A DNA stretch of 64,000 nt. Source: a virus (lineage: Duplodnaviria > Caudoviricetes). The position numbers and the translations under genes are program-made. The notes beneath the pieces are model-generated. The model searched no databases, was not told the origin of the DNA, and saw only the letters and a program-made list of their open reading frames with translations. Location: the IMG/VR virus record IMGVR_UViG_3300042914_002678, one strand, 5' to 3'. Each line of letters starts with the position of its first letter. Positions within the stretch are counted from its first letter, which is position 1. This document shows positions 45,606 through 62,850 of this stretch, piece after piece.

Positions 45606-45718
45606 TTTCTTTAACGGAAAAAGATTTACGAGAACTACAACAAAGAGTTCTTCAGCAAAAAATGAATGAACTCTTTGAAGAACCATCAACTTACGAAGAC
45701 GAGGATGAAGATGATTAA
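45602..45718 (+). CDS. Small acidic peptide (38 aa)
   Basis: Read manually: MISLTEKDLRELQQRVL...QKMNELFEEPSTYEDEDEDD. Confidence 0.5.
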   Translation: MISLTEKDLRELQQRVLQQKMNELFEEPSTYEDEDEDD

Positions 45719-45803
45719 AACACTTTTTCTATTATCAATCATATATTTTTCTACGATTGGTCTGTGGATTTATTGGGGATTAACCCATGCATACCAACCA
45801 TAA
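45711..45803 (+). CDS. Small membrane peptide (30 aa)
   Basis: Read manually: MIKTLFLLSIIYFSTIGLWIYWGLTHAYQP. Confidence 0.45.
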   Translation: MIKTLFLLSIIYFSTIGLWIYWGLTHAYQP

Positions 45804-45987
45804 ACAAAGATATAACTTTGCTATGTCTGCTTTTGTGAGAATGTATGGATACTCTGTGATACATAATCATGATATCAAGCAGTTCTGCACTGAATGGTCT
45901 AACTGGCAAGTAAATGCTCCATTATCAGGGCTTGACGAAGCGGACCAATACTTGTATTATGAGTACAAGAACTGGAGAGGAAGATGA
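45787..45987 (+). CDS. Hypothetical protein
   Basis: 66 aa ORF in a coupled chain. Confidence 0.6.
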   Translation: MHTNHKQRYNFAMSAFVRMYGYSVIHNHDIKQFCTEWSNWQVNAPLSGLDEADQYLYYEYKNWRGR

Positions 45988-46109
45988 TTTTTCATCTAGT
46001 TGAAACACTTGCAGCAAGTCCAATTTGGTTGGGTCTTTGTGGAGCAGGCTTGACAGTAGTTCCAATCCTTGGTATTATATACATACATTCAAAGAACAAC
46101 GGGGCGTAG
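45984..46109 (+). CDS. Small membrane peptide (41 aa); stop codon lies inside tRNA-Pro
   Basis: Read manually: MIFHLVETLAASPIWLGLCGAGLTVVPILGIIY...; contains promoter TTGACA(46050)-17-TATTAT. Confidence 0.5.
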   Translation: MIFHLVETLAASPIWLGLCGAGLTVVPILGIIYIHSKNNGA

Positions 46110-46171
46110 TTCAGCGGTAGAATGCTGGTTTTGGGAACCAGAGGTCACAGGTTCGATCCCTGTCGCCCCGA
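46100..46171 (+). tRNA. trnP: tRNA-Pro(UGG)
   Basis: CTGGT-TT-TGG-GA-ACCAG. Confidence 0.95.
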
Positions 46172-46188
46172 CTCATAAAAATCACTTT

Positions 46189-46419
46189 ATGAAAATGTAT
46201 CAAGAACTAAACGAACTTCAATCATTTACAGTTGAAGAGTTTCAAAAAGATTTTGACAAACTTATAGAAAGAGTTGAGAACGGTGAATCATTTATTATAC
46301 GAGATGGAAATAAAAACGCTGTGATAGTTCCTTACAATGAAACCATAAAGTACGCAATAGAATCTAACGTGGATGATGAATTGATACGTCTCCACACCGA
46401 CCACGAAGAAGGTTCGTGA
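46189..46419 (+). CDS. Orphan Phd/YefM-like antitoxin-fold protein
   Basis: FTVEEFQKDFDKLIERVENGESFIIRDGNKNAVIVP; start moved to 46189 because 46069 lies upstream of tRNA-Pro. Confidence 0.6.
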   Translation: MKMYQELNELQSFTVEEFQKDFDKLIERVENGESFIIRDGNKNAVIVPYNETIKYAIESNVDDELIRLHTDHEEGS

Positions 46420-46426
46420 TTTTCTT

Positions 46427-46498
46427 GGGAGTATAGCTTAATGGTTAGAGCGCCCTGCTTATAACGGGGTAGTCTGGGTTCAACTCCCAGTACTCCTA
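46427..46498 (+). tRNA. trnI: tRNA-Ile(UAU)
   Basis: CCCTG-CT-TAT-AA-CGGGG; complete cloverleaf. Confidence 0.88.
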
Positions 46499-46502
46499 CC
46501 TT

Positions 46503-46575
46503 GCTCCTTTAGCAATCTGGTGAATGCAGCGAACTCATAATTCGCCTGAGGCGTGTTCGATCCACGCAAGGAGCA
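46503..46575 (+). tRNA. trnM: tRNA with CAU anticodon (elongator Met or Ile2; not initiator)
   Basis: GCGAA-CT-CAT-AA-TTCGC; paired 1:72; no GGG/CCC initiator stem. Confidence 0.85.
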
Positions 46576-46576
46576 C

Positions 46577-47357: not shown

Positions 47358-47478
47358 AGGTGGTGGAGTCAATATGACCCCTTGGTTTCTTGCTTTTCCT
47401 CAAGAGCAAGTGGTGCGGATGGGGAATTCTTTCTCCGCCTGGTTTCCAATTTCCAGTTAAAGAATTGGTGGCGAGCCT
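47358..47478 (+). ncRNA. wcaG-type RNA (tandem UGGYG hairpin modules)
   Basis: Duplicated unit CCTTGGTTTCTTGC...GCAAGTGGTG vs GCCTGGTTTCCAAT...ATTGGTGGCG with compensatory stem changes; upstream of a WcaG-family epimerase. Family name is from memory. Confidence 0.7.
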
Positions 47479-47487
47479 GAGTTACCG

Positions 47488-47523
47488 AGGTGGGTTGCAT
47501 AAACCCACCTTTTTTAGTATAAT
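47488..47523 (+). terminator. Terminator hairpin overlapping sigma70 promoter TTGCAT-17-TATAAT
   Basis: GGTGGGTT/AACCCACC followed by T6; -35 at 47495, -10 at 47518. Confidence 0.7.
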
Positions 47524-47539
47524 ATATAAAGGGAGTTTA

Positions 47540-48640
47540 ATGCAATCTATGAGTGATTATACGAAAACAGCACTTGTACTTGGTGCTGGTGGGTTTATTG
47601 GAAGTCATATGGTGAAGAGGTTGAAATCAGAGGGGTATTGGGTTCGTGGTGTGGACCTTAAGTATCCTGAGTTTTCTGTCTCTGAAGCAGATGAATTTAT
47701 TCAGGGAGACTTGCGCGACATGAGTTTTGTTCGCCGTGTTCTTGAATTCAAAGGAGAGCAAGGTAATTTTTACGCTAATGTTCCTTATCGTTACATTCTT
47801 CCTTTTCACGAGATCTATCAGTTCGCTGCTGATATGGGTGGTGCTGGATTTGTGTTCACTGGAGAGAACGATGCAGATATTATGCATAACTCCGCAACAA
47901 TTAACCTCAATGTCCTTGAAGCACAACGTCAACTGAATGAAACATTTAATGGTGTTGAAAAAGAATGGACTAATTGTAACCGTCCTGTTCTAGATTACCA
48001 GACTAAAATTTTCTACTCTGGATCTGCCTGCATGTATCCAGAGCACAATCAATTAGACCCAGATAATCCAGATTGTCGTGAAGAATCAGCATACCCTGCC
48101 AATCCAGATTCTGAATATGGTTGGGAGAAACTGTTCTCAGAGCGGTTGTTTTTCGCTTATTCACGTAACCATGGTATTCCTGTTAGGGTTGCTCGGTATC
48201 ATAATATTTTTGGACCAGAGGGAACTTGGGAAGGAGGTAGAGAAAAAGCACCAGCTGCAATTTGTCGTAAAGTGGCATATCTTCCAAAAGAAGGTGGCAC
48301 AATTGATGTGTGGGGTGATGGAAAACAGACTCGTTCCTTCCTGTATATTGATGAATGTATTGAAGCAACCCGTCGTTTGATGGACTCTAATTTCCAAGGT
48401 CCTGTGAATATTGGTTCTGAGGAAATGGTAACCATCAATCAACTTGTAGAAACTGCTGCTAAAGTTGCTGGTAAGAATGTGGAGAAGAATCATATTGATG
48501 GTCCCCTTGGGGTTCGTGGTCGTAACTCTAATAACGATTTAATTCGTGAGAAACTTGGATGGGATTACTCCCAAACCTTAGAAGAAGGAATCGCAAAAAC
48601 GTATAGGTGGATTGAGGAACAAATAAATGTCAAGGCATAA
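47540..48640 (+). CDS. GDP-mannose 3,5-epimerase-like SDR (WcaG family)
   Basis: GAGGFIG, QFAADMGG, SACMYP, YGWEK, GREKAPAAICRK; start at MQSMSDY rather than 47390. Confidence 0.88.
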   Translation: MQSMSDYTKTALVLGAGGFIGSHMVKRLKSEGYWVRGVDLKYPEFSVSEADEFIQGDLRDMSFVRRVLEFKGEQGNFYANVPYRYILPFHEIYQFAADMGGAGFVFTGENDADIMHNSATINLNVLEAQRQLNETFNGVEKEWTNCNRPVLDYQTKIFYSGSACMYPEHNQLDPDNPDCREESAYPANPDSEYGWEKLFSERLFFAYSRNHGIPVRVARYHNIFGPEGTWEGGREKAPAAICRKVAYLPKEGGTIDVWGDGKQTRSFLYIDECIEATRRLMDSNFQGPVNIGSEEMVTINQLVETAAKVAGKNVEKNHIDGPLGVRGRNSNNDLIREKLGWDYSQTLEEGIAKTYRWIEEQINVKA

Positions 48641-49433
48641 GTTTAATCTTGTAGGCAATACCTTTGACTATGCCGATGCTCCAAAGTGTTCTGTTTGGGG
48701 TAAAGAGTCGAAGAAAACTGAATGGGTAAGTGAAGGTGGAGATGGAACCTTTTACATTGATGCTGCCATAGGTTATGCATTTGATGATGATGTTAAGGGT
48801 CCAAAGTATGCTTGGATTCTTGAGTCTGCTGCAATTCTTCCACAAATTACTGATTTTGTAAAAGGTGCAGGCAGAGAAAGAGTATTGAATTCTTTTGATA
48901 TTATCTTTACTCATAACAAAGACTTAATTAAGATTAATCCAGAAAAATTTAAATGGGTTCCTGCACAGGGAACTTGGATTAAACAACCAAAGGTATATGA
49001 GAAGTCTAAGATGATTTCGATGATTTCCTCAAATAAAACAATGTGTGAGGGGCATAGAAAGCGTCTTGAATGGGTTGAAAGATTTAAGGATCAGGTTGAT
49101 TTCTATGGTCGTGGGTTTCCGACCGAAATTAAGTTTAAGGAGGAAGGTTTGTGTGATTATATGTTCTCAATTGCAATTGAGAACGCTTCATACGAAACTT
49201 ACTTTACTGAAAAAATCTTAGATTGTTTTGCCACTGGAACTATTCCCGTTTATTATGGTGCTCCTGATATTGGGGATTATTTTAATAAGGATGGCATCAT
49301 TGATCTAAGTGAAGAGTTTGAGGTCTCAGATGATATCTACTACAGTAAAATGGATGCTATCGAAGAGAACTTAGAAAAAGCTAAAAAAATGGAAGTGCTT
49401 GAAGATTTTATTTGGGAGAATTATTTCGCATGA
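48627..49433 (+). CDS. GT10 (alpha-1,3-fucosyltransferase-like) glycosyltransferase
   Basis: YMFSIAIEN, YFTEKI.DCF..GTIPVYYG. Confidence 0.8.
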   Translation: MSRHKFNLVGNTFDYADAPKCSVWGKESKKTEWVSEGGDGTFYIDAAIGYAFDDDVKGPKYAWILESAAILPQITDFVKGAGRERVLNSFDIIFTHNKDLIKINPEKFKWVPAQGTWIKQPKVYEKSKMISMISSNKTMCEGHRKRLEWVERFKDQVDFYGRGFPTEIKFKEEGLCDYMFSIAIENASYETYFTEKILDCFATGTIPVYYGAPDIGDYFNKDGIIDLSEEFEVSDDIYYSKMDAIEENLEKAKKMEVLEDFIWENYFA

Positions 49434-49972
49434 CAAAAGAAGTATTTGATTTGGCAGTGTCTGAAGGTAGACCTGTTTGCTATTATATCTTTAGAGATCT
49501 TGGAATCGGTAAAGAGTGTAAGTATTTTGTAGAGACTGGAACTCATTTTGGTGGTAGCGTTCAGTTTGCTTTGGATCTTGGGTTTGAGCAAATTTACAGT
49601 TGTGAATTTATGGAGGATCGTTATCAGCATTGTATGGAAAAATTCCAAGACAATGATAATGTAAATCTTTGGTTGGGTGATTCCAGTGATTGCTTTGCTG
49701 ATATGATGAAGCAAGTGGACAAAAGAACTTGCTTTTGGCTAGATGCTCACGGAGAGGGTGGTGGAGTTCCTACGTTTGAAGAACTTGATTTGATTGAACA
49801 GAATGAAATCAAGAATCATACCATTGTGATTGATGATATCCCCGTATATTTCCTTGGTAAAGAAAAGGAATTGGAAGAGAAACTACTTTCAATAAATCCT
49901 GATTATACGCTTAAGTATTATAAGTCTATTAATCCAACGGACGATTATGTTTTAGTTGCTTACGTCGAGTGA
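49430..49972 (+). CDS. Class I SAM methyltransferase-like protein
   Basis: FVETGTHFG, GDS, FWLDAH, IVIDD. Confidence 0.7.
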   Translation: MTKEVFDLAVSEGRPVCYYIFRDLGIGKECKYFVETGTHFGGSVQFALDLGFEQIYSCEFMEDRYQHCMEKFQDNDNVNLWLGDSSDCFADMMKQVDKRTCFWLDAHGEGGGVPTFEELDLIEQNEIKNHTIVIDDIPVYFLGKEKELEEKLLSINPDYTLKYYKSINPTDDYVLVAYVE

Positions 49973-49973
49973 T

Positions 49974-50681
49974 ATGAAACCTTGCATAATTAAACAACCT
50001 GCGGGAATTGGTGATGTTTTCTTTCTTCAAAAAGTAGCACACACTTATCGGGAAAAAGGTTGCAAAATTATTTGGGCACTTAGAGATGATATTTTCTGGG
50101 TTTCTGAATACATACCTGATATTGAATGGTATAAATTGAGTGATCAGTTTCCAGGAAAAGAGTTGTTTAATTATGCTGGATTTGGTGAAACGGATGAATT
50201 TATTTACATAGATGCTTCAACTGCAGATAGAACTTTCAATACTGATCCCACAAGGATTATGTCTGCAAAATTTGGTTTAGTTGGACTTGATCACACTGAC
50301 TGGGGAAAGTATTTTAAATTCAATCGCAACTATGAAAAAGAAAACAAACTTTATTATGAAGTTTTAGGTCTTACTGATGATAGTGAATATGTTTATGTAA
50401 ACGATATTATCAATACTAATATAGTTAAGACCGGTAAATTTAATAATTTGGAGTTTAAGTATCCTGCAATTTTTAATCAAATCTATGAAGAATATACTTT
50501 ATTTGATTGGATTAAAGTATGGGAGAATGCAAAAGAAATTCATACTATTCCAACAGGAATGTGTTTTATTATAGATGTCATTGACACTAAAGGAGAGATA
50601 TACTATTATCCTCAGGACGAGAGACAATATAAAGATGTGATAGACATCTTTAGCAAAGTTACTGAATACAGAAATGCTTGA
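49974..50681 (+). CDS. Probable glycosyltransferase-like protein
   Basis: QPAGIGDVFF N-terminal motif reminiscent of GT-B enzymes; island context. Confidence 0.55.
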   Translation: MKPCIIKQPAGIGDVFFLQKVAHTYREKGCKIIWALRDDIFWVSEYIPDIEWYKLSDQFPGKELFNYAGFGETDEFIYIDASTADRTFNTDPTRIMSAKFGLVGLDHTDWGKYFKFNRNYEKENKLYYEVLGLTDDSEYVYVNDIINTNIVKTGKFNNLEFKYPAIFNQIYEEYTLFDWIKVWENAKEIHTIPTGMCFIIDVIDTKGEIYYYPQDERQYKDVIDIFSKVTEYRNA

Positions 50682-51303
50682 AAATTATTCAAAGAACATA
50701 GATGGAATTGTCTATCAGGTAGATAAACAACACATCGATTATGATAAAGATTATGTGAATACTCGCTATGTTAAGTATGGAGAACTTCCAACTTATATGG
50801 GATATTTGCGTTTAGGTAATATTATTGGATCTCTTAATCGAGTTCCAAAAAGTATTCTTGATGTTGGTTATGGTGATGGATCTTTTTTGAAAGTCTGTAA
50901 TAATATTGTTCCCGAATGTTATGGGTATGATATTTCAACCTATCCTATTCCAAATGGATGTACTCAAGTTGAAAGTATTACAGAAAATTTTTATGATGTA
51001 ATTACTTTCTTTGATTCTCTCGAACACTTTGAAGACATTGATTTTGTTCGTGATTTGAAGTGTAGTGCTGTGTGCATTTCTGTTCCTCATTGCCACTATA
51101 AAAACGATGAGTGGTTTGAGAATTGGAAACATAGGAGACCAAATGAACACCTTTGGCACTTTGATAAAAAATCATTGGTTACATTTATGAACAGAATGGG
51201 ATATGAAATTATATCTTCTAGCAATGTAGAAGATACTATTCGTAAAAATAAGGAAGAAGAATCTAACATTTTGACTTGTGTTTTTAAAAAAGTAAAAGTA
51301 TGA
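50674..51303 (+). CDS. Class I SAM-dependent methyltransferase
   Basis: ILDVGYGDG, YDVITFFDSLEH, HLWHF. Confidence 0.82.
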   Translation: MLENYSKNIDGIVYQVDKQHIDYDKDYVNTRYVKYGELPTYMGYLRLGNIIGSLNRVPKSILDVGYGDGSFLKVCNNIVPECYGYDISTYPIPNGCTQVESITENFYDVITFFDSLEHFEDIDFVRDLKCSAVCISVPHCHYKNDEWFENWKHRRPNEHLWHFDKKSLVTFMNRMGYEIISSSNVEDTIRKNKEEESNILTCVFKKVKV

Positions 51304-52310
51304 AAGCTGTTGTATTAGAAAAAATTGATGCACCTCTTGCGATTAGAGATGTTGAATTGACTGAACTAAAGGTGGGTCAGGTTCTTGTTAAGATACTTGT
51401 AAGTGGTTTGTGTGGCGCACAACTCCATGAAATTCGTGGTCATAAGGGAAATGCAAAGTTTCTTCCTCATCTAATGGGTCATGAAGGATGTGGCATTGTT
51501 GAAGAAGTTGGACCTGGTGTAACCACAGTTAAAGTTGGTGATAAGGTTGTGATGCATTGGAGACCTGGAACTGGAATTGAAGCACCATTTCCATCATATG
51601 TTCTCGATGGAAAATCGATGAGTAGTGGTAAAGTAACTACTTTAAGTGAGTATTCTATTGTATCCGAAAATAGACTAACTACTGTCCCTCAAGATACTCC
51701 AGAAGATTTGTGTGCAATTCTCGGTTGTGCTCTGACGACTGCAATGGGAATTATTGATAATGAGATTGATCTTAAGTTTGGTGAAAGCGTTGCTGTTGTT
51801 GGATGTGGTGGTGTTGGATTGAACTTGATTCAAGCAGCAGCACTTAAGAGTGCGTGCCCAATCTATGCAATTGATAATAATGTGACAAAGAGAGATCTTT
51901 GCTTTACTGCTGGAGCATCTCTCTTTACTAACTCTATCAACAATTTGGAGGAAAGTGTAGATGTAATTATTGATACTACAGGTATTCCTGAAGTTATTAG
52001 TGAGTGTGCATCAAAACTTTCTGGTAAAGGGCGTATGGTTCTAGTTGGGCAACCAGCTCCTGGACGTGGTATTGAGATTATGAATGCACTTAACCTTTTT
52101 AATGGTATGGGTCAAAGTATTAAAGCAACTCAAGGTGGAAAGACCAATCCTGCAGAAGATATCCCTCGTTATGTTCGTATGCATAAAGAAGGTTTGTTAG
52201 ATATCAAGCAATTTGTTACACATCGTTTCAAACTAGATGAAGTAAATGATGCATTCGACTTGCTTAAGTCAGGAAATGCTGGTAGAATTATTGTCGAAAT
52301 AGGAGTATAA
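51300..52310 (+). CDS. Zinc-binding medium-chain dehydrogenase
   Basis: GLCGAQ, GHEGCG, GCGGVG; lacks the structural-zinc Cys cluster. Confidence 0.88.
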   Translation: MKAVVLEKIDAPLAIRDVELTELKVGQVLVKILVSGLCGAQLHEIRGHKGNAKFLPHLMGHEGCGIVEEVGPGVTTVKVGDKVVMHWRPGTGIEAPFPSYVLDGKSMSSGKVTTLSEYSIVSENRLTTVPQDTPEDLCAILGCALTTAMGIIDNEIDLKFGESVAVVGCGGVGLNLIQAAALKSACPIYAIDNNVTKRDLCFTAGASLFTNSINNLEESVDVIIDTTGIPEVISECASKLSGKGRMVLVGQPAPGRGIEIMNALNLFNGMGQSIKATQGGKTNPAEDIPRYVRMHKEGLLDIKQFVTHRFKLDEVNDAFDLLKSGNAGRIIVEIGV

Positions 52311-52313
52311 TAG

Positions 52314-53522
52314 ATGAGAGGAACTGATTGGACGCCTGAAGGTCTTCGTTCTTTTGTAGATAAGATCGCAGAACATCACGATGCTGGTCGTTTGCCTTTT
52401 GCCCTCCACCTTCCTGGTGGTAATGAAGAGCAATTGATTGATATTTTTTCGAACATTAATGAGGGGGATTACGTTTTATCCACTCATAGAAATATGTACC
52501 ATGCCTTGTTGCACGGTCTTCCTCCAGAAGAAGTTGAGAATAAAATTCTTAATGGTCGAAGTATGTTTATGTTTGATCGTGAACGTAACTTCTACGTCTC
52601 TGCTATTATTGGTGGACCTGTTGCAATTGCTGTAGGCATTGCTTGGGCATTGAAGCGTAAGGGATCAACTCAAAAGGTTTGGTGCTTCCTTGGTGATGGA
52701 ACTGAAGATACTGGGCACTTTGCAGAAGCAGTGCGTTATGTGGATGGATTCGATCTTCCCTGCACCTTTGTGATAGAAGATGACAGAATGGCAGTAGAAG
52801 CACCAAAAGAACGTCGCTGGGGAACTGATAAAGACCTTGATTGGCCTTCTTGCGTTGTTCGCTACCATTACACTAAGACTCGCCCTCACATTCGTACTGG
52901 TAACTTTGCCGACTTGAAGGTGATGAAGGAAATTATGCGAACTGATGAGGAGTATTTCCCTCTTCTTCCTAAGCGCGAGTATCCAAAACCAGTTGATTAT
53001 CATCCCCTTGATATAAAGTTCAAGGATGCAGTAACTCAGGGTATGACTGAACTTGGTGAAGATGGTGCAATCTTTATTGGATATAGTCTCATTCCTGGTG
53101 ATGCAATGGGAACTCTCAAGAATGTTCCTGATGACCAAAAGATTGAAACTCCCGTTGCAGAAAATCTAATGGTTGGTCTTGCAATTGGTATGTCATTTGA
53201 AGGTTTTAAACCAGTTGTTTATTTTGAACGGCATGACTTTATGTTGGTTGCTGCCGATGCCATTGGCAATCATGTAGATAAAATCGAAAGAATCTCACAC
53301 GGAGAATTTAAAGTTCCTATCATTCTAAAAACTGTTGTTGATGATGGTGGACTGTTCTATTCTGGACCTACTCATTCTCAGGACTTTACAAAAGTATTCC
53401 AAGAGTTGGTAGATTTCCCTGTTCTTGACCCTCAAACTCCAGAGGAAGCTTTGGATATGTATAGGTATGCCAAAGATAGTGATGGTCCTGTGATGATTGT
53501 AGAGCACAAAAAGTTCCACTGA
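52314..53522 (+). CDS. Fused TPP-dependent E1-alpha / E1-beta-N (transketolase-like) protein
   Basis: STHR, FLGDGT TPP motif, ETPVAEN..VGLAIG; no beta C-terminal domain. Confidence 0.82.
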   Translation: MRGTDWTPEGLRSFVDKIAEHHDAGRLPFALHLPGGNEEQLIDIFSNINEGDYVLSTHRNMYHALLHGLPPEEVENKILNGRSMFMFDRERNFYVSAIIGGPVAIAVGIAWALKRKGSTQKVWCFLGDGTEDTGHFAEAVRYVDGFDLPCTFVIEDDRMAVEAPKERRWGTDKDLDWPSCVVRYHYTKTRPHIRTGNFADLKVMKEIMRTDEEYFPLLPKREYPKPVDYHPLDIKFKDAVTQGMTELGEDGAIFIGYSLIPGDAMGTLKNVPDDQKIETPVAENLMVGLAIGMSFEGFKPVVYFERHDFMLVAADAIGNHVDKIERISHGEFKVPIILKTVVDDGGLFYSGPTHSQDFTKVFQELVDFPVLDPQTPEEALDMYRYAKDSDGPVMIVEHKKFH

Positions 53523-54334
53523 TGAAAACATATGTGTCCCTAGGAATCGGGGATTTATTTTTTCTCGATTCCATTCTTACAAAAGATGAGAAAGAAAGCA
53601 TAACTGAAATCTATTGGGCATGTAGATTTGGATATGTGATGAAAGATTTGTTGGAGAATAACCCATCATATCCAAATCTTATCTCTCAATATGTTATTGA
53701 TGATGAAACTGGAAAGGCAGCAATGGCAACGCTTGATCCTATTGCTGTCCCTTTTTGGCATTTTAGACCTGACTTTGAACGTAACTTTAAAGTTGGGTTA
53801 AAACTATTTGGTATCGAGAGTGATTGGGATAATCAAAATCTTCAGATAGTTGATGCTGTAAGTATGTTTCTGGATGACACAAGACCATTCCAAGAATCGT
53901 CTTTTATCAAACACGCCGATAGAATTGATGACAACTACATCGTCTTTCATTACCCAACATCAACCAGACCAAGAAGTGACATCGCACACATTACTGATGA
54001 TGATGTTGAGTTTGTGAATCAGTTATCAAGAGAAACTGGTTATTGTGTCAAGATTATCTCCGATCATAAAGTAGATCTTGCAATTGAGAATCAAGAGCAG
54101 TTTATTAATGAACCCATTATTAAAGTAAAAGACTTGGTTGCCAATTGTAATTATTATGCTGGTTGCGATTCTTTCTGTAGTATTCTTGCGGCAAAAGCAC
54201 TTCCAAAAGAAAACTTGTTTATTAAAACATCACCAAACTTTACTGGATGGAATAATTGGTTATTTCGAGCATTCCTTCCACATTCTCCCGAAGAAGTAAA
54301 GCAATTTTATAAACCATACATTGGAAGACCATGA
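53522..54334 (+). CDS. Hypothetical protein, possible GT9-like
   Basis: LGIGDL N-terminus; YAGCDSFCS near the C-terminus. Confidence 0.55.
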   Translation: MKTYVSLGIGDLFFLDSILTKDEKESITEIYWACRFGYVMKDLLENNPSYPNLISQYVIDDETGKAAMATLDPIAVPFWHFRPDFERNFKVGLKLFGIESDWDNQNLQIVDAVSMFLDDTRPFQESSFIKHADRIDDNYIVFHYPTSTRPRSDIAHITDDDVEFVNQLSRETGYCVKIISDHKVDLAIENQEQFINEPIIKVKDLVANCNYYAGCDSFCSILAAKALPKENLFIKTSPNFTGWNNWLFRAFLPHSPEEVKQFYKPYIGRP

Positions 54335-55062
54335 GTAGTATACTAGTTATTGGTGAGACTTGTAGAGATGTATTTGTCTATTGTGATTCCAATAGACTTT
54401 GCCCAGAAGCACCTGTTCCCGTTCTGAATATTGTAGACCAGAGGGAAAACCCTGGGATGGCTGGTAATGTTCGTAGAAATATTGAGAGTCTTTCTGGAAA
54501 GGTAATTAACATAACAACCAATTCTAATTGGTATGAGATTGTAAAAACAAGATATGTGCATCGAGAGAGTAATCATATGTTCTTTCGAGTAGATACAACA
54601 CAACCAACTCCTAGATTAAATGTTAAAGATCTTGATTTGGATTATGATTTAGTCGTTATTTCAGATTATAATAAAGGGTTTCTTCTTGAAGATGACATTT
54701 CATATATTTGTTCTAATCATAGTAATGTGTTTATAGATACAAAGAAAATTCTTGGTGATTGGGTGAAGGAAGCGAGGTTTATTAAAATCAATGATTATGA
54801 GTATCGTAATTCTGAAAAGTATTTGACAAGTGAGATAAAGGAAAAGATCATCCATACTATGGGGGGTCTTGGATGTGAGTATAAAGGAAAAAGATACCCA
54901 ACTAAAAAAGTAGAAGTTAAAGATCTATCTGGTGCTGGTGATACTTTCATGGCAGCACTAGTAGTAAAATTTATAGAAACAGACAATATTGATAAGAGTA
55001 TTGTATATGCAAATGAATGTGCATCTAAAGTAGTAACTCAAAAAGGAGTAGCAGTCCTATGA
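54331..55062 (+). CDS. hldE: Heptose-7-phosphate kinase (HldE/RfaE domain I, PfkB family)
   Basis: RLCPEAPVPV, GMAGNV, VISDYNKG, DLSGAGDT. Confidence 0.88.
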   Translation: MSSILVIGETCRDVFVYCDSNRLCPEAPVPVLNIVDQRENPGMAGNVRRNIESLSGKVINITTNSNWYEIVKTRYVHRESNHMFFRVDTTQPTPRLNVKDLDLDYDLVVISDYNKGFLLEDDISYICSNHSNVFIDTKKILGDWVKEARFIKINDYEYRNSEKYLTSEIKEKIIHTMGGLGCEYKGKRYPTKKVEVKDLSGAGDTFMAALVVKFIETDNIDKSIVYANECASKVVTQKGVAVL

Positions 55063-55841
55063 TTATTCTGACTGGTTACAATGGATTTATTGGAAATGCT
55101 TTTTTGGATAAACTTGATAAAGAGAACCTTTATCGGGTTGGTATTGGTGGAGCATTTAATTTTTTAAATGAATACAATGACTGGGATAAAGTGCAACTAA
55201 TACTTCATCAGGGTGCTATCTCAAGCACAGTTGAAACTGACATAAACAAGATACACAAATATAATGTTGATTTCACGCTTAGATTATTTGAGAAAGCCAT
55301 TGAATATAAAATTCCAGTTAAGTATGCATCCTCAGCATCTGTTTATGGAAATCTTCAAGGCATCTTCAATCCATTGAACTACTATGCTATTTCAAAACTA
55401 CAAATAGATTATTGGGTTCAGGATCATATTAATGACTTCTCTTTGATACAAGGTTTTAGATATTTTAATGTCTATGGTAATGGTGAAGACAGTAAGGGAG
55501 ACCAAGCAAGTCCAGTAAGTAAATTTGCAAAGCAAATAAAAGAGACTGGAAAACTTAATTTGTTTGAAGGATCGGATAAGTTTTTGAGAGATTTTATTTG
55601 TGTTAATGACGTTGTTGATGTTGTCCTTAACAATGAGAAAGGATCTGGAATCTATGATCTAGGAACTAGCAATCCTGTGAGTTTCCAACATGTTGCAGAA
55701 TGTGTTGCAAAGAAGTATAATGGTGATATTAACTATATTCCTTTCCCTGACCATTTGGTTGGTAAGTATCAAGACTACACTAAAGCAAAATGTGAATGGG
55801 GGGATTATAAGTTTATGCCCGTAGAGGACTACCTTAAATGA
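55059..55841 (+). CDS. hldD: ADP-glyceromanno-heptose 6-epimerase
   Basis: TGYNGFIG, HQGAISST, YASSASVYG, YAISK, FRYFNVYG, RDFI.V.D. Confidence 0.82.
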   Translation: MIILTGYNGFIGNAFLDKLDKENLYRVGIGGAFNFLNEYNDWDKVQLILHQGAISSTVETDINKIHKYNVDFTLRLFEKAIEYKIPVKYASSASVYGNLQGIFNPLNYYAISKLQIDYWVQDHINDFSLIQGFRYFNVYGNGEDSKGDQASPVSKFAKQIKETGKLNLFEGSDKFLRDFICVNDVVDVVLNNEKGSGIYDLGTSNPVSFQHVAECVAKKYNGDINYIPFPDHLVGKYQDYTKAKCEWGDYKFMPVEDYLK

Positions 55842-56242
55842 TTACAGTATGGACAAATGGATGCTTTGATATATTGCATCCAGGACATATGGAATTATTC
55901 AAGATTGCCAAATCTCTTGGTAATCGTTTGATTGTTGGTATCGATGAGGACCAAAAAGTCCGTAATGATAAAGGACCCAATCGTCCAGTAAATTCATTGT
56001 CTTTTCGTAAGGCAATGTTGGAATCAAATAAACATATTGATATTGTAATTCCATTTGGTAGTCGTCAAGAACTTGAGAATCTAATTCAACTTTATTCTCC
56101 AGACATTCTCCTTGTAGGTGGTGACTGGAGAAATGGTGATGTTGTTGGTAGACAATTTGCTAAGGAAGTAAGATTCTTAGATAGAGTTGGTGGATATTCT
56201 ACTACTGATATTATAAGGAGAATTCATGAAATACGTTGTTGA
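55838..56242 (+). CDS. hldE: Heptose-1-phosphate adenylyltransferase (HldE/RfaE domain II)
   Basis: TNGCFDILHPGH, KG..RP, GYSTT. Confidence 0.88.
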   Translation: MITVWTNGCFDILHPGHMELFKIAKSLGNRLIVGIDEDQKVRNDKGPNRPVNSLSFRKAMLESNKHIDIVIPFGSRQELENLIQLYSPDILLVGGDWRNGDVVGRQFAKEVRFLDRVGGYSTTDIIRRIHEIRC

Positions 56243-56558
56243 CATTGATGGGACAATTTGCGATAAACCAAGTAATATGCATCACGATGGCGATTACTCT
56301 ATTAGTGTTCCAATCCCAGGTAGAATTGAAAAAATAAATAAACTATACGAAGAGGGACATACTATCGTATATCTCACTGCTAGAGGTATGGGAAGGCACG
56401 GTGATTCTAGGATGTTAGCACATAAAGAATTTTATAATCTAACTTATAATCAACTCATAAATTGGGGTTGCAAGTTTCACGAACTTCACATGGGTAAACC
56501 CTCTGGCGACTTTTACATTGACGATAAGGGTATCAATTCTAATGAGTTCTTCAATTAA
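56226..56558 (+). CDS. Small HAD-family phosphatase
   Basis: DIDGT, TARG, GKP...YIDD. Confidence 0.8.
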   Translation: MKYVVDIDGTICDKPSNMHHDGDYSISVPIPGRIEKINKLYEEGHTIVYLTARGMGRHGDSRMLAHKEFYNLTYNQLINWGCKFHELHMGKPSGDFYIDDKGINSNEFFN

Positions 56559-56895
56559 ATTTGTCCCTAAGGGATGGGGATTTGAAAAATGGATTGTAAA
56601 CAATGAGCAATACTGTGGTAAACTTTTATACTTCGCACAGGGAAGAAAATGCTCTTGGCATTATCATAAATTAAAAGATGAAACTTTTTACATTCAATCT
56701 GGATGCATAAAGTTGTTATATTCTGATAATGATAATAGAGAACTTGCTAATATTATTTTCTTAAAGAAGGGAGATAATTTTCACATTTATCCTGGTCTTC
56801 GTCATCAGATGATTGCTCTAGAGGATACAGAATTATTTGAATTTTCTACTCAGCACTTTGATGAGGATAGTTACAGAATTATTAAAGGAGATTGA
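56542..56895 (+). CDS. Cupin (sugar-phosphate isomerase-like)
   Basis: KGWG.E.W, SWHYHKLKDETF, H.YPG.RHQM. Confidence 0.78.
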   Translation: MSSSIKFVPKGWGFEKWIVNNEQYCGKLLYFAQGRKCSWHYHKLKDETFYIQSGCIKLLYSDNDNRELANIIFLKKGDNFHIYPGLRHQMIALEDTELFEFSTQHFDEDSYRIIKGD

Positions 56896-57752
56896 TTATG
56901 ATTGGTATGAATAAGTTGGGACAAAAGGGTAGACTGGGAAATCAATTATTTCAGTATGCTGCTTTAGTTGGGATTGCTAAGAATATGGGATATGACTTCT
57001 GTATTCCCGATCATTCAAAGGCAACTTGGTTTGATCAACAAGTTGATGGAAATACTGTAACTGTATATCATCAACTTCAGCATCTTTTTGAGATGAACTA
57101 TCTGGATGGTAGATTTGGTGAAGTTGATGGATATGATATTGATGTACACCAAGCGGAATTTTGTGAAGAACTCTTTAATGAATGTCCAGATAATTCAAGT
57201 CTTCTTGGGCATTTTGAGTCATACCACTATTTTAAAAATGCTGAAGAAGAACTCCGTAAAGACTTTGTAGTGCGTGAGCACCTAGTTGAAGCAGCATCAA
57301 AGTTTCATAAAGATAAAGGAACCCAGAATCCTGTATGTGTAAGTGTTCGACGGGGTGACTACATTAAGTTTCAAGATCATCACCCTCCTTGTGTAGAATC
57401 ATACTATAGAGAGTGTATGGAAAAACTTGGAAAGGAACGTCAATATGTTATAACTTCTGATGATATTGAATGGTGTAAAACCGTCTTTATTGGAGATAAT
57501 TTTATATTCAATGACGATGCACCTGAAAATGTGTATAAACCTCATTTTGATTTTGCTGTTGGAACTCTATGTGACGATTTCATTATTGCGAATAGTACTT
57601 TCTCTTGGTGGATTGCTTGGGTTGGTGGAAAGAAGGATAAGCAAATTTTTATTCCTAAACCATGGTTTGGACCTGCTCTTTCTCACATTGATACTGAAGG
57701 ATATTATGTTCCTGGTATGAATATTGTTGAAAGAGAGATTATAAGACTATGA
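56892..57752 (+). CDS. GT11 (alpha-1,2-fucosyltransferase-like) glycosyltransferase
   Basis: GRLGNQLFQYA, VRRGDY, IIANSTFSWW. Confidence 0.88.
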   Translation: MIMIGMNKLGQKGRLGNQLFQYAALVGIAKNMGYDFCIPDHSKATWFDQQVDGNTVTVYHQLQHLFEMNYLDGRFGEVDGYDIDVHQAEFCEELFNECPDNSSLLGHFESYHYFKNAEEELRKDFVVREHLVEAASKFHKDKGTQNPVCVSVRRGDYIKFQDHHPPCVESYYRECMEKLGKERQYVITSDDIEWCKTVFIGDNFIFNDDAPENVYKPHFDFAVGTLCDDFIIANSTFSWWIAWVGGKKDKQIFIPKPWFGPALSHIDTEGYYVPGMNIVEREIIRL

Positions 57753-58555
57753 TGGATTTAACTTTCTTAATTCCAACTAGAATCGAAACCGAAGATAGGT
57801 TGAGAAATATTATTTCATCTGTTTCTTATCTTCTTGCATACGTTCCTGCAAAAGTGATTGTAAAGGAAGTTTCTGGTCGCAATACATTTAAGTTTAGAGC
57901 TCTACCTGAGATTAAAAAAAGGGTTAGTACAGAAAATCTAACTCATTTGTATGAGGAAAATAATGATCCTTTATTCTGCAAGAGTAAAGTTTTAAATGAT
58001 TTGATAGTTGCTTCGGATACAAAAGTTGTTGCAAACTATGATGCTGATTGTATCCTTCCACTGTCTTCATACCACCAGGCATATGGTGCAATTAACGATG
58101 GACATGCAGATGTAGTATATCCATATGGATGTGGAATCTATCAGTGGAGAGCAGAATACAATATGGATATCTTTGAAGACTTTATGAATAAGTTGGATAT
58201 ATCTGTTCTTGACAGAAATAAAACACTATCCAACTCTACAATTGGATGGACACAGTTTATCAATAGGCAGAAGTATATTGATTCCTATATGATGAATGAA
58301 AACTTTGTTTCCTGGGGATGCGAAGATGATGAGTTTTATTTTCGTATGAGTACTTTGGGAAATCGTATTGCAAGAATTGATAACTATGTCTATCACTTGG
58401 AACACGGTAGAACTCACAACTCTTGGTTTAGTAATCCAAACTTCAATAACAATTGGACTCTGTGGAATACAATTAAAACATTTGACAGAAACCAATTGGT
58501 AGAGTATTATGAAAATCAAGACTATCTAAAAACACGTAAAGCACAATTGAAATGA
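57749..58555 (+). CDS. GT-A glycosyltransferase (GT2/GT7-like)
   Basis: YDAD DxD motif, WGCEDDE, YHLEH. Confidence 0.82.
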   Translation: MMDLTFLIPTRIETEDRLRNIISSVSYLLAYVPAKVIVKEVSGRNTFKFRALPEIKKRVSTENLTHLYEENNDPLFCKSKVLNDLIVASDTKVVANYDADCILPLSSYHQAYGAINDGHADVVYPYGCGIYQWRAEYNMDIFEDFMNKLDISVLDRNKTLSNSTIGWTQFINRQKYIDSYMMNENFVSWGCEDDEFYFRMSTLGNRIARIDNYVYHLEHGRTHNSWFSNPNFNNNWTLWNTIKTFDRNQLVEYYENQDYLKTRKAQLK

Positions 58556-59370
58556 TAGGATTTAATGCACTTGGGCGAATGGGAAGGTTTGCCAATCAGA
58601 TGTTCCAATATGCAGCCTTAAAAGGTATTTCCAGAAAAATTGGAACAGATACTTGTATCCCTAATCATACTCAAGTAGTTGATGATGGAATTGGAAATAA
58701 ATTAAGGACTGAATTGTTTGATTCTTTTAATCTGAATACAAAAGTTGGTCTCCTTAACAATGGACACGCTCCTGTTGTTAATGAGAGATTTTTTCATTTT
58801 GATGAAGAACTTTTTAATCTCTGTCCAGACCACGTAAGTCTTCAAGGATATTTTCAAACAGAAAAATATTTCAAGCATATTGAAGATGAAATCAGAGAAG
58901 AGTTTACCTTTAAAGGTGAAATTCTTTCTCCTTGTAAAGAAATGATTTCTTCTGTAGATAATCCGATTGCTTTACATGTTCGTCGAACAGATTATGTAAC
59001 TAATAGTGCAAATCATCCTCCTTGTTCTTTGGAGTATTATGAGGCAGCATTGGAGCATTTTGATAAAGATAGAAACGTTATTGTGTTCTCTGACGATCCT
59101 GCCTGGTGTAACCAACAAGAATTGTTTTCTGATGATCGATTTATGATTTCCGAAAATACAGACAACAGAGTTGACTTATGTTTGATGTCTCTTTGCGATG
59201 ATTTTATTATTGCAAACTCATCATTCTCTTGGTGGGGAGCTTGGTTATCAACAAATGAAGATAAAAAAGTCATTGCACCTTCACAGTGGTTTGGAAAGGA
59301 AGGATACACAAAAGATCATGACACTAAAGATTTAATCCCAGATAGTTGGACTAGAATTACCAATGGATAA
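58552..59370 (+). CDS. GT11 (alpha-1,2-fucosyltransferase-like) glycosyltransferase, second copy
   Basis: GRFANQMFQYA, LHVRRTDY, IIANSSFSWWGAWL. Confidence 0.9.
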   Translation: MIGFNALGRMGRFANQMFQYAALKGISRKIGTDTCIPNHTQVVDDGIGNKLRTELFDSFNLNTKVGLLNNGHAPVVNERFFHFDEELFNLCPDHVSLQGYFQTEKYFKHIEDEIREEFTFKGEILSPCKEMISSVDNPIALHVRRTDYVTNSANHPPCSLEYYEAALEHFDKDRNVIVFSDDPAWCNQQELFSDDRFMISENTDNRVDLCLMSLCDDFIIANSSFSWWGAWLSTNEDKKVIAPSQWFGKEGYTKDHDTKDLIPDSWTRITNG

Positions 59371-60166
59371 AAATAAATCTGCACATAAATTAAAAGGTCT
59401 TCCGAAGATTTACTGGTTAAATTTAGACGCCGATACAGAAAGACGTGAGTATATGGAGCAGCAGTTCCAATACTGGGAGATTGAAAACCATACTCGCATC
59501 TCTGGATATGATGGTAGAGTTGATGATGTTGCTTGTCATCTTAAAGGAAGGATTCCTGACAATGTAAGTCAAAATGAACTTGGTTGTTGTATGTCTCATC
59601 TTAAGGCAATTAAAACCTTTTATGAGGAGACTGATGATGAATATTGTTTGATTCTTGAGGATGATGTAAATTTTGATATTGTAAAATATTGGAACTTTAC
59701 TTGGACAGAGTTTTTCTCTCTTGCTCCTTATGATTGGGATTGTTTGCAACTAACAACTATCTGTACTGGTGATATTCATGTTAGATTGCATTTGAAGTTT
59801 ATTAATGATTTTTCTGCAGCAATTTATTTGATTACTCGTCATCATGCTGCAAAACTAATGAGAAATCATGTTCGTGGAGATAAATTTAAATTAGATAATG
59901 GTGTAAAACCAAGGGCTGTTTCTGAAGATACAATTTTAGAAACGGGTAAGACATATACAATTCCTTTATTTTTGTATAACTTGAATATGGGGTCTACTAT
60001 TCATACTGACCACCTTAGTATCTTCCATAAAGGACCACACGATGCTTTGCTAAATTATTGGCAACAACAAGGTGCTACGATCGATATTAGGGAACATATG
60101 AATTATGATCCTTATTTGGGTAGAATCGTTGAGAGTTCTGCACCCCCACCACAACAAAATGCTTGA
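59363..60166 (+). CDS. GT25 glycosyltransferase
   Basis: YWLNLD...RR, ELGCCMSH, LILEDD. Confidence 0.85.
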   Translation: MDKNKSAHKLKGLPKIYWLNLDADTERREYMEQQFQYWEIENHTRISGYDGRVDDVACHLKGRIPDNVSQNELGCCMSHLKAIKTFYEETDDEYCLILEDDVNFDIVKYWNFTWTEFFSLAPYDWDCLQLTTICTGDIHVRLHLKFINDFSAAIYLITRHHAAKLMRNHVRGDKFKLDNGVKPRAVSEDTILETGKTYTIPLFLYNLNMGSTIHTDHLSIFHKGPHDALLNYWQQQGATIDIREHMNYDPYLGRIVESSAPPPQQNA

Positions 60167-60192: not shown

Positions 60193-60250
60193 AGTCAGAC
60201 CTTGAGGAAACTTAAGGTTTTTTTCATATTCTATAGAAGAAATAAATTTT

Positions 60251-61887: not shown

Positions 61888-62850
61888 ATGAAACTCAAAA
61901 ACTTTATTGCTATTGGTCTAGTTGCTGCTCCTGCTGCTGCTCTTGCTGGACCTGCTCTGAATGGTGCTGGTGCTACCTTCCCTGCACCGATTTATCAACG
62001 ATGGTTCCAAGATTATGCACGAACTTCTGGGAATAGGGTTAATTATCAGTCCGTTGGTTCTGGCGCTGGTGTTCGTCAATTTATTGCGGGCACAGTTGAC
62101 TTCGGAGCAAGTGACGAACCAATCAAACCAGCAGAAGCAGCAAAGGTGAAGCGTGGTGTCGTTCAAATCCCTATGGTTGGTGGGACGATTGCTGTTGCTT
62201 ATAACAAGCCTGGATGCAAACTGAAACTAACCCAGAAGCAAACTGTTGATATTTTTTCTGGTCGCATTAAGAACTGGAACCAAGTTGGATGTACTGCTGG
62301 TCCTATGACTGTGGTTCATCGTTCTGATGGTTCTGGAACCACTTATGCATTCACTAACTCTCTGGATGCTTTTGGTGGTTGGAAACCTGGTGTTGGTAAA
62401 TCTGTAAATTGGCCTGTTGGTGTTGGTGCCAAGGGTAACGAGGGTGTCTCTGGAACTATCAAAAACACTCCTGGTGGCATTGGTTATGTGAATACAGGAT
62501 TTGTCCGTGCCAACAAACTTCAAGCAGCAGTTCTTCAAAACAAAGCAGGTAAGTTCGTTGGACCTTCTGCTGTGACTGGCTCTGCTGCTCTGAATGGTAT
62601 TACTCTAGATGCAAACCTTGCTGGTGAGAACCCCAATCCTGCTGGTGTAAATGCATACCCCATTTCTACCCTGACTTGGATCCTTGCATATAAGAAAGGT
62701 AATGGTGCAAAAACGAATGATATCCGTGCCGCTATCAATTATGCTTTAAGCACTAAGGCACAATCTATTGCTGATGACCTTGGATATGTTCCTCTTTCGG
62801 GAAGTGTTCTCAATAAAGCACGTCTTGCTGTTGGTCGTATCGGTCAATAA
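61888..62850 (+). CDS. pstS: Phosphate-binding protein PstS
   Basis: GAGATFP, YQSVGSGAG, DFGASD, HRSDGSGTT. Confidence 0.96.
   Translation: MKLKNFIAIGLVAAPAAALAGPALNGAGATFPAPIYQRWFQDYARTSGNRVNYQSVGSGAGVRQFIAGTVDFGASDEPIKPAEAAKVKRGVVQIPMVGGTIAVAYNKPGCKLKLTQKQTVDIFSGRIKNWNQVGCTAGPMTVVHRSDGSGTTYAFTNSLDAFGGWKPGVGKSVNWPVGVGAKGNEGVSGTIKNTPGGIGYVNTGFVRANKLQAAVLQNKAGKFVGPSAVTGSAALNGITLDANLAGENPNPAGVNAYPISTLTWILAYKKGNGAKTNDIRAAINYALSTKAQSIADDLGYVPLSGSVLNKARLAVGRIGQ

Follow-up and report, generated by a model that had tools for sequence, protein, structure and literature searches.

Acyl-branched sugars are generally formed in two steps, in which a thiamine diphosphate (ThDP) enzyme introduces the branch and an NAD(P)H-dependent reductase then acts on the product (PMC9306805). 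In the YerE/YerF system of yersiniose A, and with ErwE/ErwF and MyGE for erwiniose and related sugars, an activated acyl unit is added in an acyloin-type reaction to a keto sugar nucleotide; the acceptor of the YerE type is made by a 4,6-dehydratase together with a 3-dehydrase, and NAD(P)H reduction follows the addition (PMC9306805). A second type is found in actinomycete antibiotic pathways, where pairs of proteins resembling the alpha and beta subunits of the E1 component of pyruvate dehydrogenase (PDH), namely AviB1/AviB2, Pau11/Pau12 (Plm8/Plm9) and EvdU5/EvdS3, have been assigned, by genetics and by proposal, the attachment of a pyruvate-derived two-carbon (C2) branch to nucleoside diphosphate (NDP)-4-keto sugars, with a separate ketoreductase following (PMC4802897, PMC4753412, PMC10338323). 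Here we describe a ThDP enzyme of 402 amino acids (aa), a fused "mini-E1" encoded at 52314..53522 (+ strand) in a 64,000-nucleotide stretch of viral DNA (IMG/VR record IMGVR_UViG_3300042914_002678, Caudoviricetes; hereafter the window), where its gene follows that of a Zn-dependent alcohol dehydrogenase (ADH) within a glycan operon.

The locus resembles both described systems in part. An earlier note, made from the letters of the window alone, had named YerE as the parallel, and the same chemistry is indeed proposed here; moreover, a neighbourhood of the YerE type is found in one clade of mini-E1 relatives, which is linked to ColD-like dehydratases. YerE, however, belongs to a different ThDP family: it is an acetolactate-synthase-type flavoprotein whose domains run in the order pyrimidine-binding (Pyr), middle (FAD) and diphosphate-binding (PP), whereas the phage protein has the order PP-Pyr, and the two are homologous only in the basic ThDP fold. 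The reductase YerF, too, is presumably not a member of the Zn-dependent medium-chain dehydrogenase/reductase (MDR) family. The closer precedent is that of AviB1/AviB2, Pau11/12 and EvdU5/S3 (PMC4753412, PMC10338323), which are E1-alpha/beta homologues in an NDP-sugar cluster lacking the E2 and E3 components, as is the phage protein. They differ from it in being encoded by two genes and described simply as E1 subunit homologues, whereas the phage protein is a fusion of ~400 aa without the beta C-terminal domain and without much of alpha; in being actinomycete proteins, whereas mini-E1 enzymes (fused, or split into ~200 + ~175 aa) occur in phages, cyanobacteria, many Gram-negative phyla and DPANN archaea, and in that the phage enzyme is linked to heptose genes.

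Neither the gene, which is present in public genomes, nor the idea of E1-like sugar-branching enzymes is new. In the literature searched we found no description of a two-domain mini-E1 family, of its three partner-specific clades, or of its link to heptose and family 9 glycosyltransferase (GT9) genes in cyanophages and Prochlorococcus, and literature searches combining ThDP, heptose and nucleotide sugar returned nothing relevant. By examining the domain make-up and predicted structure of the phage protein, the phylogeny and gene neighbourhoods of its relatives, and the operon in which it lies, we arrive at the reading, to which we give a probability of about 0.55, that it is a ThDP carboligase acting on a nucleotide-activated heptose.

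A minimal E1-type enzyme

The 402-aa open reading frame (ORF) is a real, conserved protein and not a chance ORF, because 1187 related clusters (at 90% identity) match it at E <= 1e-3, nearly all of them ~400 aa long. Pfam, alignment to structures in the PDB and a structural model agree on its layout, which consists of an E1-alpha-type PP domain (residues ~5-200), a linker (~200-235) and an E1-beta-type Pyr domain (~236-402). In Pfam, E1_dh matches residues 22-167 (5.4e-13, profile positions 18-171 of 300) and Transket_pyr matches residues 266-400 (1.3e-10), while Transketolase_N (PF00456), Transketolase_C (PF02780), TPP_enzyme_N and TPP_enzyme_M give no match to the protein; DXP_synthase_N matches weakly, and TPP_enzyme_C stays below threshold (16.3 bits against a cut-off of 21.9). 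With the NCBIfam transketolase models the protein reaches 21-27 bits, where 488-575 would be required. By HMMER against the PDB, residues 24-168 correspond to E1-alpha 69-213 of the 368-aa Bacillus stearothermophilus chain, and residues 266-401 to E1-beta ~54-178 of ~330, where the phage chain stops.

The structure prediction that the earlier note had proposed as a check gave the same picture. An AlphaFold model built with ten homologues (mean predicted local distance difference test, pLDDT, 85.9; predicted template modelling score, pTM, 0.89) was superposed with VIA-align: the E1-beta N-terminal domain fits residues 232-402 (Z 23.4, root-mean-square deviation, rmsd, 1.7 A over 169 residues), human E1-alpha fits residues 3-217 (Z 16.6, 202/363 residues), and the whole chain corresponds to human transketolase 15-477 (Z 19.2), the C-terminal domain of transketolase remaining unmatched. 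The domain arrangement is that of transketolase and E1 (TMq 0.65), unlike that of deoxyxylulose-5-phosphate (DXP) synthase (TMq ~0.35, rmsd ~18 A). Two segments of a conventional E1 are missing: the beta C-terminal domain, as the earlier note had recognised, with the chain ending at E1-beta residue ~177 of 323-330, and some ~160 residues of alpha, which is shortened to ~200 residues from the ~330-370 of full-length subunits.

What has been kept includes the residues that handle the cofactor, and the ThDP site appears, from the alignment, to be intact. The ThDP/Mg2+ motif (52692..52784, + strand) comprises GDG at residues 127-129 and E155-D-D 26 residues on, the counterpart of GDG...QNN in B. 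stearothermophilus E1-alpha; D128 and E155 are invariant among the aligned relatives, which read ENN, EDN or EDD at the second element. Glu283, in the segment PVAEN (53160..53162, +), is likewise invariant, occupies the place of the conserved Glu in the TPxxE segment of E1-beta and would be the cofactor-activating Glu of the Pyr domain. His354, in THSQ (53373..53375, +), is invariant as well and is the counterpart of the E1-beta active-site His, aligning with THSQ or YHSN of the E1-beta chains 1qs0_B and 1ik6.

Among known enzymes, the heterotetrameric E1 components of PDH, branched-chain 2-oxo acid dehydrogenase (BCKDH) and acetoin dehydrogenase are the best match in sequence and structure for both halves, sharing GDG, the cofactor Glu and the His of HSQ, although the phage enzyme differs from all of them in being a single chain with a ~200-residue alpha part and no beta C-terminal domain, located in a glycan operon without E2 or E3. 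Transketolases, split-gene transketolases and DXP synthase share the order PP then Pyr; the phage protein, however, has no match to Transketolase_N or Transketolase_C, and its domain arrangement differs from that of DXP synthase. Judged by these family models, the phage enzyme is not a normal transketolase.

The dehydrogenase gene (51300..52310, +) encodes a Zn-dependent medium-chain protein of 336 aa with ADH_N (1.9e-16) and ADH_zinc_N (6.4e-11) domains, and its closest PDB relatives are class III ADHs (~118 bits). It keeps the catalytic Zn ligands, while the four-Cys structural-zinc loop (segment ~98-130 of class III chains) is gone. The mini-E1 ORF starts 4 nt after the ADH ORF on the same strand. 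The pairing recurs in relatives, an ADH 63-69% identical to that of the window lying directly 5' of the mini-E1 gene in phage P-TIM68, metagenome contigs and Prochlorococcus single-cell genomes.

A widespread family with three kinds of partner gene

The small size of the enzyme, which the earlier note had called unusual, does reflect the presence of two cofactor domains only, but it is not unique to this phage, which carries one member of a large family. An exhaustive profile-free search yielded 83 representative clusters below 1e-30, many of them matching just one half of the protein, over ~200 aa in the N-terminal case and ~175 aa in the C-terminal case, and a scan of one genome per prokaryotic species gave 39 loci. 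Most cellular genomes encode the enzyme as split adjacent genes, with an alpha of 195-214 aa and a beta of 174-189 aa, each as truncated as the corresponding half of the phage protein. Full-length alpha/beta E1 fusions (~650-690 aa) are only ~30% identical to the 402-aa protein, and a maximum-likelihood tree sets the mini-E1 enzymes apart from them (100/100). The family is spread over bacteria, DPANN archaea and phages. A gene-neighbourhood survey, another check proposed in the earlier note, placed the gene within a glycan or sugar-nucleotide cluster in every one of the ~50 loci examined, and this company of nucleotide-sugar enzymes is kept across three domains of hosts. The mini-E1 gene also lies beside the heptose genes of two non-homologous activation systems, the HldE-type ADP-heptose system and the HddA/HddC-type GDP-heptose system. 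Within the tree, three groups coincide with the type of neighbouring gene.

Group I comprises split enzymes from Nitrospira, Verrucomicrobiota, Flavobacteriales, Omnitrophota, SAR11, Ideonella and groundwater contigs. They lie among an HddA-like GHMP kinase, an HddC-like nucleotidyltransferase, GmhA, GmhB, a Gmd-like 4,6-dehydratase, RmlC, Fcl-like reductases and B12-dependent radical S-adenosylmethionine (SAM) enzymes. In 11 loci, from Nitrospirota, Verrucomicrobiota, Bacteroidota, Omnitrophota and Pseudomonadota together with two groundwater metagenome contigs, a DegT-family protein is encoded 1-4 kb from the mini-E1; its best PDB relative is the dehydratase ColD, and a His replaces the Lys that binds pyridoxal phosphate. 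A role for these DegT neighbours as aminotransferases that aminate the acetyl branch was considered and is ruled out by the dehydratase His in the 11 loci; Lys is found in the DegT protein only in two Pacearchaeota loci. By analogy with yersiniose A, the Group I genes fit a route in which a 3,6-dideoxy-4-keto sugar is formed and then branched by the ThDP enzyme.

Group II, from DPANN archaea, Desulfobacterales, a gammaproteobacterium and several phages (one of 735 kb), has as its partner a radical-SAM/SPASM protein of ~350 aa, whose best PDB relatives are the sugar-acting enzymes BlsE, BtrN and DesII. GT9 genes often adjoin the Group II mini-E1; within the family as a whole, they flank mini-E1 genes in loci L022, L029, L030, L032 and L033. 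In the 735-kb uncultured phage LR756501 (L053, 8391-10576) and in the phages of L009-L011 the split genes run in the unusual order Pyr subunit, radical-SAM/SPASM protein, PP subunit, and the clusters are rich in glycosyl- and methyl-transferases.

Group III, the clade of the window (100/100), is nested in the radical-SAM-linked Group II (98/98). Its members, among them those of Synechococcus phage S-SM2, P-TIM68 (60% identical) and many marine contigs, are fused enzymes with the Zn-ADH gene always before them, mostly followed by a gene for a short PfkB kinase or adjoining a full HldE gene; S-SM2, P-TIM68 and metagenome contigs all have the three genes in the order ADH, mini-E1, HldE-type kinase. 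Cellular genomes have the pair as well. In an Acidobacteria contig it occurs with a Wzx flippase, HldE, GmhB and GmhA, and in three Prochlorococcus single-cell genomes it adjoins GmhB, HldE, HldD and GmhA. The idea that ADH and mini-E1 together replace a missing GmhA is ruled out by this co-occurrence of GmhA with the pair in the Prochlorococcus and Acidobacteria loci.

Two further Group III-like loci deserve mention. A 250-kb contig binned with a metagenome-assembled genome (MAG) of Bifidobacterium breve (L017) carries a marine-phage-like block of ADH, mini-E1, PfkB, HldD and HAD genes, 55-62% identical to those of the window; either the bin assignment is doubtful, as it looks, or the contig is a large phage. 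In a Kaiserbacteria MAG (L022; 6451-7731 and 11984-12961) an NDP-sugar C-methyltransferase (Methyltransf_13/14) and a GT9 precede ADH, mini-E1 and PfkB, and a KdsD/KpsF-like SIS-CBS isomerase gene comes right after the kinase.

The heptose module and the glycan operon

The window is part of a T4-like cyanomyovirus genome, with genes for gp20 portal, gp23 capsid, UvsW, the clamp loader, gp43 polymerase, UvsX, a gp41-like helicase and NrdAB. The closest isolate is S-SM2, whose SSM2_198, named as a "transketolase central region-containing protein", is 91% identical to the 402-aa protein; the complete S-SM2 genome and the nearest record, of 36 kb, served as stand-ins for the whole genome to which the window belongs. 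The ADH and mini-E1 genes lie in a one-strand glycan operon (~47540..60166, +), flanked by terminator-like hairpins at 47487-47511 and 60197-60220, and composed in order of a GDP-mannose 3,5-epimerase homologue, GT10, two genes of no assigned function, a methyltransferase, ADH, mini-E1, a GT9-like gene, the heptose module, GT11, GT7C-like, GT11 and GT25. A promoter scan gave a count no higher than in shuffled sequence, and no promoter is proposed.

Directly downstream of the mini-E1 lies a 270-aa ORF (53522..54334, +) that appears, from its modelled fold, to be a compact GT-B glycosyltransferase of the GT9 (heptosyltransferase) type missed by sequence models. It has no Pfam match even in a permissive search, BLASTP against one bacterial GT9 gave nothing, and its 167 related clusters are all unnamed; its model (pLDDT 93.6) has as its 12 best Foldseek matches in the PDB WaaC, WaaF, TibC and a Veillonella GT9 (E 6e-5 to 1e-3), and an Atlas lead likewise points to GT9. 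The GT9-like GT-B fold rules out that this ORF is a detached E1-beta C-terminal domain.

Next comes a set of genes akin to those of ADP-heptose synthesis. A short PfkB kinase resembling the HldE kinase domain, and thus like a heptose-7-phosphate kinase (54331..55062, +; TIGR02198 rfaE_dom_I, 7.6e-32), shares 29% identity with the corresponding half of a Prochlorococcus HldE, and such a kinase is encoded directly 3' of the mini-E1 gene in most other ADH-linked (fused-clade) loci. It is followed by a 260-aa HldD-like ADP-heptose 6-epimerase (55059..55841, +; TIGR02197, 1.4e-59, 201.8 bits), by a 134-aa heptose-1-phosphate adenylyltransferase resembling HldE domain II (55838..56242, +; TIGR02199, 3e-34) and 42% identical to the transferase half of a Prochlorococcus HldE, by a small GmhB-like HAD-IIIA phosphatase of 110 aa (56226..56558, +; TIGR01689 capsule biosynthesis phosphatase, 1.1e-8, and HAD-SF-IIIA), and by a 125-aa WbuC-type cupin (56518..56895, +; Cupin_2, and TIGR04366 at 4.3e-5). 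The S-SM2 orthologue of the phosphatase (SSM2_210, 23639-23968) is labelled "phosphoheptose isomerase", whereas the models identify it as a HAD-IIIA or capsule phosphatase. The window yielded no GmhA (SIS) gene.

At its start, the operon has a homologue of GDP-mannose 3,5-epimerase (47390-48640, +; 273 bits to 2c59, the plant enzyme), which rules out this ORF as a 4,6-dehydratase supplying a 4-keto sugar. An ORF beginning at the TTG at 47390 would run through the terminator-like hairpin at 47487-47511, and translation therefore probably begins near 47540 instead. The presence of this homologue beside members of the GT10 and GT11 "fucosyltransferase" families suggests sugars of the L-galactose or L-gulose type.

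Outside the operon, its terminator is followed by a gene for a 497-aa protein with SLH and OprB carbohydrate-porin domains (60251-61744, +), at the position where S-SM2 has DUF680 genes, and then by a PstS-like phosphate-binding protein (61888-62850, +). Upstream, a tRNA cluster (43125-46576) comprises Val-tac, Ser-tga, Pro-tgg, Ile-tat and Met-cat; an ORF at 46069-46419 with a weak Phd/YefM match overlaps tRNA-Pro and may be no real gene, and a ferritin-like ORF lies at 44189-44623.

Proposed function and its alternatives

The reading that we favour is that the phage mini-E1 is a ThDP carboligase which would join a C2 unit, probably pyruvate-derived, to a nucleotide-heptose in keto or aldehyde form, with the ADH as its redox partner. 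Taking the domain make-up, the cofactor site, the lack of the domain that docks E2, the neighbourhoods and the tree as observations, we infer from them the donor, the acceptor, the order of steps, the direction of the ADH and the final glycan. The enzyme would be self-sufficient as a single chain, probably forming a dimer like those of transketolase and E1. A 2-oxo acid, most likely pyruvate, would be decarboxylated to an enzyme-bound hydroxyethyl-ThDP carbanion, and the C2 unit then joined to the carbonyl carbon of a nucleotide-activated sugar, perhaps at C4, C6 or C7 if it is a heptose, giving a C-acetyl or 1-hydroxyethyl branched sugar or a chain-extended one. The earlier note had proposed an NDP-4-keto sugar as the acceptor; a heptose derivative, in the phage most likely one of ADP-heptose, seems more likely than a 4-keto-6-deoxyhexose because it is ADP-heptose genes and a gene for a GT9-like transferase that are conserved nearby. 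The nucleotide-heptose would come from the split HldE together with the HldD-like epimerase and the GmhB-like phosphatase, and the GT9-like transferase would move the modified sugar onto a glycan during infection.

The Zn-ADH could either oxidise a sugar hydroxyl to provide the acceptor carbonyl or reduce the new acetyl ketone, as YerF does. We slightly favour oxidation because the sister group has as its partner a radical-SAM enzyme with kinship to the sugar oxidases BtrN and DesII. Such an exchange of partners has a parallel in the 2-deoxy-scyllo-inosamine dehydrogenases, where BtrN (a radical-SAM enzyme) and NeoA-type enzymes (Zn-dependent MDRs) catalyse the same oxidation in different organisms; this mirrors the radical-SAM- and ADH-linked mini-E1 clades and the swap from Group II to Group III, as an analogy for the partner only and with no orthology implied. 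One model could then embrace the three groups, in which mini-E1 would be coupled to different makers of carbonyls: short-chain dehydrogenase/reductase (SDR)-type dehydratases in Group I, a radical-SAM sugar oxidase in Group II and the Zn-ADH in Group III.

Several points weigh against this reading. The strongest evidence from gene context comes from Group I, a different subclade whose members are only 30-40% identical to the phage protein. The yersiniose-like logic put forward in the earlier note is strong in these distant split relatives, which lie beside ColD-type 3-dehydratases, 4,6-dehydratases, RmlC and Fcl-like reductases and so are co-located with makers of NDP-4-keto acceptors, but not in the window, which, unlike YerE-type clusters, has no 4,6-dehydratase and no ColD/RfbH-type 3-dehydrase; there only the Zn-ADH and the HldD-like SDR could supply the acceptor carbonyl. 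The match of the Group II partner to BtrN and DesII is weak (E ~1e-9, over the core region only). In the phage Mg2+ motif Asp-Asp replaces the Asn-Asn of E1 enzymes, which is unusual, at a position that varies among relatives. The short PfkB, tightly linked to the mini-E1 and at ~29% identity far from a host HldE, would also fit a modification made before nucleotide activation. Furthermore, no heptose with a C2 branch or an extended chain is known to us from cyanobacteria or from cells infected by cyanophages.

The point about the kinase leads to an alternative in which the enzyme builds the sugar skeleton before activation: in the manner of transketolase or DXP synthase, hydroxypyruvate, pyruvate or a ketose would donate a C2 unit to an aldose phosphate, such that a heptulose or octulose phosphate results and is activated by the short PfkB kinase, the phosphatase and the adenylyltransferase; the transaldolase-initiated GDP-octose route of the lincosamides is an analogue. 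The position of a PfkB divergent from the host HldE directly 3' of the mini-E1 in phage-type loci would suit such a route, as would the lack of GmhA in the window, the SIS-CBS sugar-phosphate isomerase after the kinase in the ADH-clade locus L022, the weak DXP_synthase_N matches and the transketolase fold of the whole chain. Yet Pfam assigns E1_dh rather than Transketolase_N, and the HSQ motif of E1-beta is kept; the ColD-linked clade has its genes among enzymes that act only on NDP-keto sugars; the Prochlorococcus loci have GmhA and a normal HldE beside the pair; and the Zn-ADH would have no clear role. We consider this route unlikely. A further alternative, of phosphonate or Ehrlich type, takes the mini-E1 as a non-oxidative decarboxylase that turns a 2-oxo acid into an aldehyde for reduction to an alcohol by the ADH, giving a small non-sugar substituent of the glycan, on the model of pyruvate decarboxylase with ADH or of phosphonopyruvate decarboxylase with phosphonoacetaldehyde reductase. 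A ThDP decarboxylase beside a Zn-ADH is a classic pairing, the small or split decarboxylases RhiEF (phosphonopyruvate decarboxylase) and AzcBC are among the structural neighbours, and a cytidylyl/adenylyl-transferase-like gene and a cupin lie nearby. The nucleotidyltransferase, however, scores best as a heptose-1-phosphate adenylyltransferase, no ORF of the cluster matches the phosphoenolpyruvate-mutase family, the domains of RhiEF/AzcBC-type enzymes run the other way round, in a ThDP family distinct from that of the E1-type phage protein, and the partner in other clades is a radical-SAM enzyme or an NDP-sugar dehydratase, not a user of aldehydes; we hold the decarboxylase reading to be decidedly improbable.

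That the gene serves central carbon metabolism, either as the E1 of a 2-oxo acid dehydrogenase working with host E2 and E3 or as an ordinary transketolase of the pentose phosphate pathway, strikes us as scarcely credible, as the earlier note had also held for PDH. In the 1w85 complex the E1-beta C-terminal domain holds the peripheral-subunit-binding domain of E2. A normal role as PDH or BCKDH E1 is excluded because this E2-binding domain, ~160 alpha residues and the E2/E3 genes are missing: none of the 20 other window ORFs of at least 300 aa matches an E2 or E3 family (host E2/E3 being beyond the reach of the sequence), and the complete S-SM2 genome has no E2 catalytic domain (PF00198). The absence of Transketolase_N and Transketolase_C matches and the glycan or sugar-nucleotide setting of every one of the ~50 loci surveyed, in the window the ADP-heptose genes and glycosyltransferases around the pair, argue in the same direction. 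On the other side stand the homology to E1 and transketolase, the database names, and the counting of tkt and PDH genes as viral metabolic genes in virome surveys (PMC4053976).

Implications

As the earlier note had anticipated, genes of this family are labelled as belonging to central carbon metabolism: public records name them "transketolase central region-containing protein", "deoxyxylulose-5-phosphate synthase" or "pyruvate dehydrogenase E1 alpha", and many marine relatives carry transketolase, DXP synthase or PDH E1-alpha names. In virome surveys genes so named are counted as a sign that viruses reprogramme central carbon metabolism (PMC4053976), and part of that signal would be misread if the genes serve sugar tailoring. 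If the proposed function is correct, a ThDP enzyme of ~375-400 residues with only the cofactor domains of E1 would be the smallest E1-type carboligase and a compact scaffold for acyloin biocatalysis.

A broader proposal, which we offer tentatively and regard as possible though on balance doubtful, is that cyanophages and some Prochlorococcus make an undescribed ADP-heptose derivative, C2-branched or with nine carbons, for which the ADH would provide the carbonyl, the mini-E1 would carry out the addition, and the GT9-like transferase would attach the resulting sugar to the cell surface in infection; mini-E1 would then represent a third, widespread and oxygen-adapted route to acyl-branched sugars, present in bacteria, DPANN archaea and phages and relying on a radical-SAM, Zn-ADH or dehydratase partner. 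The three partner clades offer a testable model of one C-C-forming enzyme plugged into different keto-sugar routes. The family may mark an unexplored class of heptoses or deoxysugars, modified in Prochlorococcus, SAR11 and Nitrospira, microbes that abound in the ocean, and in their phages, and it is the cell-surface glycans of those microbes that decide phage adsorption and grazing.

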